64,000 bases of DNA from assembly GCF_056746865.1 (NCBI RefSeq), contig NZ_CM163382.1. One strand, 5' to 3'. The notes under the pieces were generated by a model, which saw nothing but the letters and a program-made list of their open reading frames with translations, had not been told where the DNA came from and did not search any database. Shown one piece after another: positions 30,481 to 32,041 of this stretch. Position 1 is the stretch's first letter, and each line of letters starts with the position of its first letter. A program made the position numbers and the translations under genes.

Positions 30481-30557
30481 CGCTTCAATGGGAAATTGTT
30501 GTCGCCATTGTTCGATTAACGCGTATTTTTCAGCGACTCCTGTGCAAAATACGCTGT

Positions 30558-31778
30558 TGTAGATTCAATCTGTCAATGCAACACCCCTTTCAATTATCTC
30601 TTTCGGTGTTTTGAACTTCAGTGTCTTTCTCGGTCTGTTGTTTAGCTGAGCAGCAACCAGATCTAGTTCATGTTGAGTATATTGGGCAAGACATGTCTTT
30701 TTAGGAAAGTACTGCCGAATTAGCCCATTTGTGTTCTCATTTGTTCCCCGCTGCCAAGGACTCTGAGGATCGCAGAAGTAAACTTTAACGCCGGTGCTGA
30801 CAGTAAATTCTAGATGTCTGGCCAGTTCCATTCCTCTGTCCCATGTCAGTGATTTTCTGAGTTCTGACGGTAAACTCAGGAATTTGTCGGTAAGAGCCTG
30901 ATTTACTGAGACAGAATCTTTGCCCCTGAGTCTAAGGATGATCGTATAACGTGATTTTCGGTCTACAAGTGTGGCTATATGAGAGTTTTTTGTACCTGAG
31001 ACTAAATCGCCCTCCCAATGCCCTAGAGAGCGTCTGTTATCGATATTTCGGGAACGTTCGTGAATTGGTGTTCCGTTCACTATGTTAATCGTACCTCTTT
31101 CGCCTTTGCGGGTATGACGCCTGCCATGGCGAAGGCTATGCGACCGTCGCAGATGCTGTATATTCAGGTGGTGTAGCGCTTCACGGCTACGAAAGTACAG
31201 CGTTTTATAAATTGTCTCAGGTGATATTCGCAGCGTTTTTTGACGTGGTTTTGTTCGCCTTAACCATCCTGATATTTGCTCTGGAGACCATTTCATCTCC
31301 AGCTTTTCCAGAACAAGCTTTCGCAATGGTAAATTTTGATCCAGTAAGCACGGTTTTGGCCTTTTCGCCATTCTGTTGGCTCGGTTATTAGCATCAACAG
31401 CTTTGTAATAGCGTCTGCCCCGATTACGCTGAACTTCACGTGAGATCGTCGAAGGACTGCGATTCAGCGCAGTAGCTATCGCACGAATGCTCATTTTGGC
31501 TGACAAACCAGCTCGTATCTCCTCGCGCTCAGACAGTGTCAGGTGAGCTACAGCCCGCTTACGCTCATGGGGTTTTATGCCGCCAGTATCCCTTAACATA
31601 GTGAAGATCGTTCCGGGTTTTGAACCCAGGATATTCGCTATTTCACTGAAGCCTGTTCCGTTCTTCCATAGTTCAAAAACAGAGGCTTTTTCCTCTGCTG
31701 TAAATGTTCGTCTCATTCAAAAAACCTCCGCAACCCCATGTTTTCACATAACTGTTGCGTTGACCAATTGAAGCTACA
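30558..31778 (-). mobile_element. IS30 (1221 bp) nested inside the IS600-like element
   Basis: IRs TGTAGATTCAATCTGTCAATGCAACACC / TGTAGCTTCAATTGGTCAACGCAACAG; flanked by GT/GT 2-bp duplication. Confidence 0.9.
30565..31716 (-). CDS. insI: IS30 transposase
   Basis: 383-aa ORF MRRTFTAEEKASVFELWKNGTGFSEIANILGSKPGTIF... Confidence 0.9.
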   Translation of the reverse strand: MRRTFTAEEKASVFELWKNGTGFSEIANILGSKPGTIFTMLRDTGGIKPHERKRAVAHLTLSEREEIRAGLSAKMSIRAIATALNRSPSTISREVQRNRGRRYYKAVDANNRANRMAKRPKPCLLDQNLPLRKLVLEKLEMKWSPEQISGWLRRTKPRQKTLRISPETIYKTLYFRSREALHHLNIQHLRRSHSLRHGRRHTRKGERGTINIVNGTPIHERSRNIDNRRSLGHWEGDLVSGTKNSHIATLVDRKSRYTIILRLRGKDSVSVNQALTDKFLSLPSELRKSLTWDRGMELARHLEFTVSTGVKVYFCDPQSPWQRGTNENTNGLIRQYFPKKTCLAQYTQHELDLVAAQLNNRPRKTLKFKTPKEIIERGVALTD

Positions 31779-32041
31779 GTTGCTTTTTTTAATATATCTC
31801 GCTCAAGGCGAGCTTCATTTAACGCCTTACGCAGTTGCAGAATTTCAGATTCCAGTTCAGCCACCGTGCGGGAACCAGGAGTACCGAGCCCTTTTCTGGC
31901 GGCGGTAACCCATTGTCCTAAAGTGCCTTCAGGAAGAGATAATCGGGAAGCGCCTTCACTGATCGAAAGTTGATTTTCAAGAACCGTTCTGACAGCTTCG
32001 GCTTTGAACTTTTTAGAGTAACGTTGGGTTTTTCTGCTCAT
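31779..32041 (-). pseudogene. IS600-like OrfA, 3' end displaced by the IS30 insertion
   Basis: MSRKTQRYSKKFKAEAVRTVLENQLSISEGASRLSLPEG...DILKKAT then reads into the IS30 terminus; rejoining the flanks restores ...KKATAYFAQESLKNTR. Confidence 0.75.

Follow-up and report, generated by a model that had tools for sequence, protein, structure and literature searches.

The sequence analyzed here is a 64,000-nt stretch of contig NZ_CM163382.1 (assembly GCF_056746865.1), hereafter the window, and all coordinates are numbered within it. It carries a complete copy of the insertion sequence (IS) IS30, which lies inside an IS600 element at the programmed-frameshift window between the orfA and orfB reading frames of that host. 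The nested element itself is ordinary, inherited, and to be found in existing reference annotations. What the analysis adds is the wider pattern, in which the frameshift windows of IS3-family elements emerge as recurrent and predictable IS30 targets and as endpoints of IS30-associated rearrangements. The IS30 copy comprises the following features:

30558..31778, minus strand: complete IS30, 1221 bp, differing from K-12 IS30D at 1 nt of 1221
30565..31716, minus strand: intact IS30 transposase gene, 383 aa, taken from the open reading frame (ORF) list, with Pfam HTH_38 and rve and NCBIfam NF033563
31753..31778, minus strand: IS30 left inverted repeat (IRL), with the minority C at position 6, TGTAGCTTC
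30558..30583, plus strand: IS30 right inverted repeat (IRR)
30556..30557: target-site duplication, copy 1, GT on the plus strand, corresponding to AC in the IS600 sense
31779..31780: target-site duplication, copy 2, GT

On the plus strand, the junctions read CAAAATACGCT [GT] / TGTAGATTCAATCTG ... (IS30) ... CAATTGAAGCTACA / [GT] TGCTTTTTTTAATATATC in short form and CAAAATACGCT GT / TGTAGATTCAATCTGTCAATGC ... CCAATTGAAGCTACA / GT TGCTTTTTTTAATATATC in an alternative form. Removal of IS30 together with one GT leaves exact IS600, as expected of an element that duplicates 2 bp on insertion. The original prediction, made from the letters of the window, had the 1221-bp length and the GT/GT duplication exactly right; its span of 30550..31785 does contain IS30 but is slightly too wide. 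The length agrees with the roughly 1221 bp typical of IS30, and the 26-bp terminal inverted repeats are imperfect, agreeing at 22 of 26 positions. The transposase scores 276 bits against the NCBIfam profile NF033563 transpos_IS30 (cut-off 80), and both HTH_38 and rve exceed their Pfam cut-offs in the 383-aa ORF, giving the N-terminal helix-turn-helix (HTH) and DDE core of the family.

For comparison, IS30 copies were collected from contigs encoding an identical transposase, from viral contigs, and from a metagenome scan for the IS30 left end; junction counts from these contigs are counts among the matches listed. The sole mismatch to K-12 IS30D lies at IRL position 6 (window position 31773), which is C here and A in IS30D. 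Among 161 sampled copies, this position is A in 153 and C in 6, all six at an IS600 junction. This change aside, the IS30 copy looks functional, judging from its sequence. The host element consists of the following parts:

31779..32105, minus strand: IS600 5' part, 327 bp, comprising the left inverted repeat and orfA up to the frameshift window; the same piece as the K-12 'IS600'/insM
29619..30557, minus strand: IS600 3' part, comprising the end of orfA, orfB and the right inverted repeat
31784..31790, minus strand: IS600 A7 slippery run, A AAA AAA in the orfA frame; PGAP annotates a programmed frameshift in uninterrupted copies
31673..32041, minus strand: orfA as now read, 122 aa, with 87 native codons followed by 35 codons into the IS30 IRL; native OrfA carries HTH_Tnp_1
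29662..30480, minus strand: orfB from its first ATG, 272 aa, with rve and HTH_21
30521..30554, minus strand: predicted stem-loop 3' of the slippery site, GCGUAUUUU ... AAAAUACGC, with IS30 at its 5' foot

An inverted-repeat search placed the arms of IS600 at 29619-29645 and 32079-32105. When IS30 and one GT are removed from 29619..32105, a 1264-bp element with TGAGGT...ACCTCA ends remains, and its sense junction reads GATATATTAAAAAAAGCA-AC-AGCGTATTTTGCACAGG. This rejoined element matches uninterrupted IS600 (1614 complete E. coli genomes) at 99.9% identity over 100% of its length, in a single gapless piece; the uninterrupted matches are annotated as 'IS3-like element IS600 family transposase, programmed frameshift', and one of them, L184, reads exactly ...TTAAAAAAAGCAACAGCGTATTTTGC. 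The proposed comparison with uninterrupted copies therefore bore out the claim that the flanks rejoin into IS600. It also sharpened the naming of the host, which had been called IS600-like: the element does belong to the IS3 family, but at 99.9% identity it is IS600 proper.

The rejoined orfA ends in ...DILKKATAYFAQESLKNTR*, and from the A7 run the -1 frame is open into orfB. The native orfA stop lies at 30516..30518, 14 codons beyond the A7 run, so that this run does not end orfA as had been supposed. Nor does IS30 follow the run immediately, since the insertion lies 3 nt further on (A7-GCA-[AC]-AGCG). A conceptual -1 fusion at A7 aligns with positions 1-369 of 369 of the NCBIfam IS3 transposase profile NF033516, scoring 413 bits, and the arrangement of orfA (HTH_Tnp_1) and orfB (rve) in the 0 and -1 frames at a slippery A-run appears to be the IS3-family architecture of IS600. 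Downstream of the heptamer, a 9-bp stem of -13.1 kcal/mol is predicted (z = -2.3 against shuffles). The claim that orfA had been split from orfB held: IS30 lies inside the frameshift window, and orfB is now 1.2 kb from orfA. With IS30 between the two frames, no OrfAB fusion would be made, and IS600 would therefore be non-autonomous. This loss of autonomous transposition would follow from established IS3-family behavior, and we regard the reasoning as sound.

The same arrangement recurs widely. In a set of 5426 complete E. coli genomes, near-full IS30 was found in 3110, the junction of IS600 with the IS30 IRL in 1283, and the junction of IS911 with the IS30 IRL in 1028. K-12 itself offers a second example, in which IS30A interrupts IS911A within the CP4-6 prophage (IS911 interrupted by IS30A, PMC9333248). 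The site there reads AAAAAAGGCT[AC]CGCG and is homologous to the IS600 A7GCA[AC]AGCG. IS30A in IS911A shares with the present case the AC/AC duplication, the homologous frameshift-window nucleotides, and the same orientation as the host orfA; it differs in its host, in an A6G slippery site, and in its chromosomal locus, and represents an independent event. Furthermore, the endpoint of a deletion in K-12 IS911B falls on the same nucleotide as the IS30A site in IS911A.

Among the matches listed, IS3-family frameshift windows abut 36 of 74 unique IS30 half-sites and 205 of 256 observations of an IS30 end, although the latter share (80%) overstates the frequency of events because the sample is biased and many copies are inherited. 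The safe count is that of distinct element-by-orientation classes only, of which there are at least 10, a diversity that recombination between copies could not create. The hosts include IS600, IS911, an ISEc31-like element, an element with ATATTAAAAAAAGCC[GC]GGCGTAC, and several more distant IS3-family relatives. In these windows IS30 occurs in both orientations, with perfect 2-bp repeats, and always on the fourth and fifth nucleotides after the heptamer. An IS3-family element without an A-run (L178), reading ATACTAAAGCAGGCT[GC], is occupied at the homologous spot. Additionally, many junction pairs carry no duplication and combine halves of different IS3-family windows, indicating that IS30 copies in these windows have recombined or transposed intramolecularly, as in K-12.

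Full-length IS600::IS30 composites are also found at other loci, where they are bordered by 3-4 bp direct repeats (AAC, GATA), for example in the flanks TGGCTGGAATGCAAC / AACTGAGTTCTCATG. These composites reflect either independent IS30 hits on separate IS600 copies or mobilization in trans of the 2.5-kb composite. An uninterrupted IS600 allele with ACC for ACA beside the duplication, which would prove the second composite type to be independent, was not present in the sample. A scan for the IS30 left end across one genome per species returned a single match and was therefore useless for site statistics.

To describe the target without reference to the IS3 family, a weight matrix was built from 35-36 half-sites without detectable IS3 homology, as judged by BLASTX and a profile search of the flanks. 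The profile search for contamination of this training set flagged one borderline site (E = 0.044), which was dropped in a rerun; beyond it, nothing significant pointed to hidden, distant IS3-family windows in the set, and that concern was set aside. Ahead of the 2-bp duplication, the matrix calls for T(-13), G(-5), and C(-4), with positions -12 to -7 rich in A. When mirrored, it describes a 24-bp near-palindrome, T-A6-S-G-C-N-[2 bp]-N-G-C-S-T6-A, in agreement with the near-palindromic nature of IS30 hot spots (PMC9333248). The IS600 site falls in this hot-spot class, being a near-palindrome of about 24 bp that is unrelated to the IS30 inverted repeats. The window also holds two unoccupied sites of the same kind:

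53785..53786, minus strand: unoccupied high-scoring IS30 site in the ISEc31 frameshift window, ACGATATTAAAAAAGGCT[AC]CGCGCTC
26193..26194, plus strand: unoccupied homologous IS30 site (AC) in a complete IS911; the K-12 deletion endpoint

When the rejoined window was scanned with the matrix (62,737 positions), the IS600 site ranked 1, the ISEc31 site 2, and the IS911 site at 26193 ranked 4. Without the borderline training site, these ranks became 6, 4, and 5, respectively, and after removal of all training sites containing AAAAA or TTAAA, the three sites were all still in the top 28. Outside the window, K-12 IS30C in ydbA, which had been held out of training, ranked 4 of 5738 locally. In lambda 33200-33540, the best match fell at 33290/33291. 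This is the boundary given in PMC9333248, where the LHS hot spot, defined by experiment, has its left portion at lambda 33244-33290. Because a matrix free of IS3-family sites ranks the IS3-family frameshift window at the top and also finds the lambda LHS, this window matches the 24-bp preference of IS30. As a separate observation, IS30 does occupy elements of the ISEc31 type in other genomes, and the ISEc31 site at 53785 is among the best predicted targets in the window.

Two known systems provide a comparison. The lambda LHS (Olasz et al. 1998, cited in PMC9333248) shares with the IS600 site a 2-bp duplication and a near-palindromic target, but it scores about 13, whereas the IS600, IS911, and ISEc31 windows score about 16-17; unlike the LHS, moreover, the IS3-family windows are multi-copy and lie inside other mobile elements. 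IS families that target REP sequences (PMC1525189) are likewise sequence-specific elements on a repeated, selectively neutral target. The IS30 target differs from theirs in being the coding sequence and recoding signal of another IS family rather than an extragenic palindrome.

Taken together, the nested element is very probably the product of hot-spot-targeted IS30 transposition into the programmed-frameshift window of IS600. Three things observed directly carry this explanation: how the locus is built, how homologous sites are hit repeatedly, and how well the site fits a matrix derived independently of it. From these, we infer that the IS30 transposase binds the IS600 site. IS30 transposes by a copy-out-paste-in route in which its joined ends strike the two target strands at points 2 bp apart, and its transposase prefers a near-palindromic hot-spot sequence; PMC1525189 cites an N-terminal H-HTH motif as the means of target recognition. 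In IS3-family elements, the slippery run ATATTAAAAAA(A/G)GCN lies within the conserved coding sequence for I-L-K-K-A, with the opening bases of the downstream stem next to it. Run and stem foot combined match one half-site very well and the second in part, so that IS30 would land on the fourth and fifth nucleotides after the heptamer. The insertion cuts orfA off from orfB and would leave IS600 without OrfAB; IS30 itself stays intact. On the sequence evidence, the attraction is best explained by a coincidence: the conserved ILKKA codons, together with slippery run and stem foot, happen to form a strong IS30 hot spot.

Several points weigh against this account. The site choice of IS30 is known here from natural insertions alone, and the copies sampled are non-random, coming mostly from gut E. 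coli with many of them inherited. The matrix is small (about 36 natural half-sites), and the rank of the IS600 site moves from 1 to 6 on a single borderline training site. The right half-site is weak in both IS600 and IS911, contributing 3.8-4.8 bits where the left half gives about 12. The consensus was derived from natural sites, independently of the published GOHS consensus. Finally, the 92-nt stretch around the slippery site shows no significant fold (z = -0.52), and the frameshift stem-loop is a prediction only.

Among other explanations, IS30 could be drawn by the A-rich slippery run as such, owing to the geometry of the A-tract or its homopolymeric nature, instead of by a longer hot-spot sequence. 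Most of the information in the matrix does reside in the A-rich block from -12 to -7, and all heavily used windows contain A6 or A7. Yet the window has 70 other runs of at least six A or T, whose best nearby scores have a median of 3.45, a level of about 16 being confined to the three IS3-family windows. Information also resides in T(-13), G(-5), and C(-4), the lambda hot spot offers no more than AATAAAAG, and the L178 element is occupied despite having no A-run. Given the low-scoring runs and this occupied site without one, an A-run alone is insufficient, and we consider the explanation improbable. The original prediction had proposed testing for a preference for A-rich slippery sites; such a preference was found, with the qualification that the A-run is only part of the recognized 24-bp near-palindrome.

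It could also be argued that a few ancestral insertions have spread by homologous recombination, gene conversion, or trans-mobilization of IS600::IS30, without independent targeting. This locus is clearly inherited, with a junction common to K-12; full-length composites with 3-4 bp direct repeats exist elsewhere, four copies with the same junction occur on one viral contig, and the hybrid junctions without duplication indicate that IS30 copies do recombine. Spread of this kind explains copy number, not site choice: recombination cannot give both orientations at the same dinucleotide with perfect duplications, nor can it carry an insertion from one element to another when their OrfA proteins share only 30-55% identity, which makes it very improbable as the whole explanation. 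Least probable, with hardly any weight in our estimation, is chance insertion without targeting, in which copies survived because landing in another IS is harmless and escapes purifying selection. An insertion into mobile DNA should indeed be neutral, selection filters what natural genomes retain, a large part of the IS30 sample is inherited and not independent, and survivorship in neutral DNA surely inflates the abundance of insertions in IS3-family windows. However, survivorship would allow any spot in a 1.25-kb element, whereas every IS3-family case, across the element-by-orientation classes, falls on the same dinucleotide, and the non-IS3 matrix ranks that dinucleotide in the top 0.01% of the positions scanned in the window. 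The lambda LHS is recovered by this matrix as well, and survivorship cannot explain such single-nucleotide precision.

Hot-spot targeting of the frameshift window would explain why IS30 lies between IS3-family orfA and orfB in K-12 and in thousands of other genomes. Any adaptive value of this targeting is unproven. More tentatively, and with rather less than even confidence, we suggest that windows of IS600, IS911, ISEc31, and related elements may be the principal natural IS30 hot spots in Enterobacteriaceae, making IS30 largely a parasite of other ISs. On that reading, IS30 would disable an IS3-family transposase at its recoding site while gaining a harmless landing pad, and would seed rearrangements between IS3-family copies, such as the 4.36-kb deletion in K-12 and the hybrid junctions. 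The pattern also supplies a simple predictor of IS30 landing sites, an aid to reading IS-driven rearrangements and to annotating broken IS3-family transposases. In the open literature, we found no paper that links IS30 to IS3-family frameshift windows or gives the GOHS consensus, although the closed literature may contain one; PMC2577343, PMC2831304, PMC11148124, and PMC5289635 make brief mentions that are uninformative on this link.

The nesting of IS30 in IS600 is already known, being annotated in K-12 MG1655 as IS30D/insM. The 3.9-kb arrangement of the window is 100% identical in 279 complete E. coli genomes, where PGAP annotates an IS600 fragment, IS30, and a transposase fragment, and the insertion at this locus is clearly old and inherited. 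Beside fecE, K-12 MG1655 carries, in order, IS911B (334 bp), IS30D, IS600 (327 bp, insM), and IS911B-1. This mosaic shares with the window the junction of the IRL with IS600 orfA, the 327-bp IS600 piece, an IS30 that differs by 1 nt, and a right-hand flank of IS911 fragment, yjhV, and fecE (KpLE2 region). It differs in that the IS30 right end meets the 5' 334 bp of IS911 rather than the orfB part of IS600, whereas the window retains both IS600 halves and a true 2-bp duplication. The features of the window that bear on this comparison are as follows:

26195..30557: 4363-bp segment that K-12 MG1655 lacks, lying between the IS911 hot spot and the IS30 IRR
32106..32900, plus strand: IS911 fragment abutting the orfA-side end of IS600; K-12 'IS911B-1'

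K-12 and the window are at least 99.9% identical on both sides of the missing segment, and the K-12 IS30 right end meets IS911 at ...TTAAAAAGGCTAC. The missing 4363 bp comprise the rest of IS911, a DUF2254 fragment, an intact BCCT transporter gene, and the orfB part of IS600. Because K-12 matches both sides but lacks 26195..30557, the window represents the undeleted state and K-12 a derived deletion. Sequence comparison thus identifies the K-12 fec-region arrangement as the product of a 4.36-kb deletion ending at a hot-spot-type site in IS911. Its route we infer: the deletion would have brought the IS30 right end up against a site of this kind in the nearby IS911.

The K-12 'insO' (IS911B plus IS911B-1, NC_000913.3 4507125..4509801) is annotated as one gene interrupted by IS30D and IS600. 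Comparison with the window shows this pseudogene to be a chimera of two different IS911 copies, stitched together by the IS30-associated deletion of 4363 bp. The two source copies (25861..27108 and 32106..32900) lie 5 kb apart in the window and are 96.7% identical to each other. The complete IS911 copy reads TTAAAAAGG (A5G) at 26180..26194 in place of the A6G slippery motif, as does K-12 IS911B; with A5G, orfA stops early (…EILKRLPRS*), so this copy is defective. An intact gene for a 667-aa BCCT-family transporter (27511..29514) adjoins IS600 and is wholly lost in the K-12 deletion.

At its outer ends, IS600 shows no 3-bp target duplication, with TGT (29616..29618) on one side and GGA (32106..32108) on the other. 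Its outer flanks are an IS911 fragment on one side and the upstream region of the BCCT gene on the other; together with the TGT/GGA mismatch, this indicates that the IS600 flanks were rearranged after insertion. L184 was considered as the empty site of this locus and rejected, since its IS911-side flank is only about 92% identical and its other flank differs. Even so, the uninterrupted IS600 of this unrelated strain borders an IS911/ISEc52-type fragment, and their junction (L184 300/301) falls at the very nucleotide seen in the window (32105/32106). This shared abutment point may reflect either a site preference of IS600 within IS911-like elements or an old shared junction.

Further mobile elements mark related genomes. 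In 13 of the best-matching genomes, a group II intron (ltrA) lies in the IS911 fragment to the right of IS600 (L002 4515..6775, corresponding to window position ~32410), adding a third nesting layer that is absent from the window. An IS2-like copy at 50804..52135 is 95.8% identical to K-12 IS2K and is missing at that position in the otherwise identical CFSAN061770, while K-12 IS2K is inserted elsewhere, at a position matching window ~18253.

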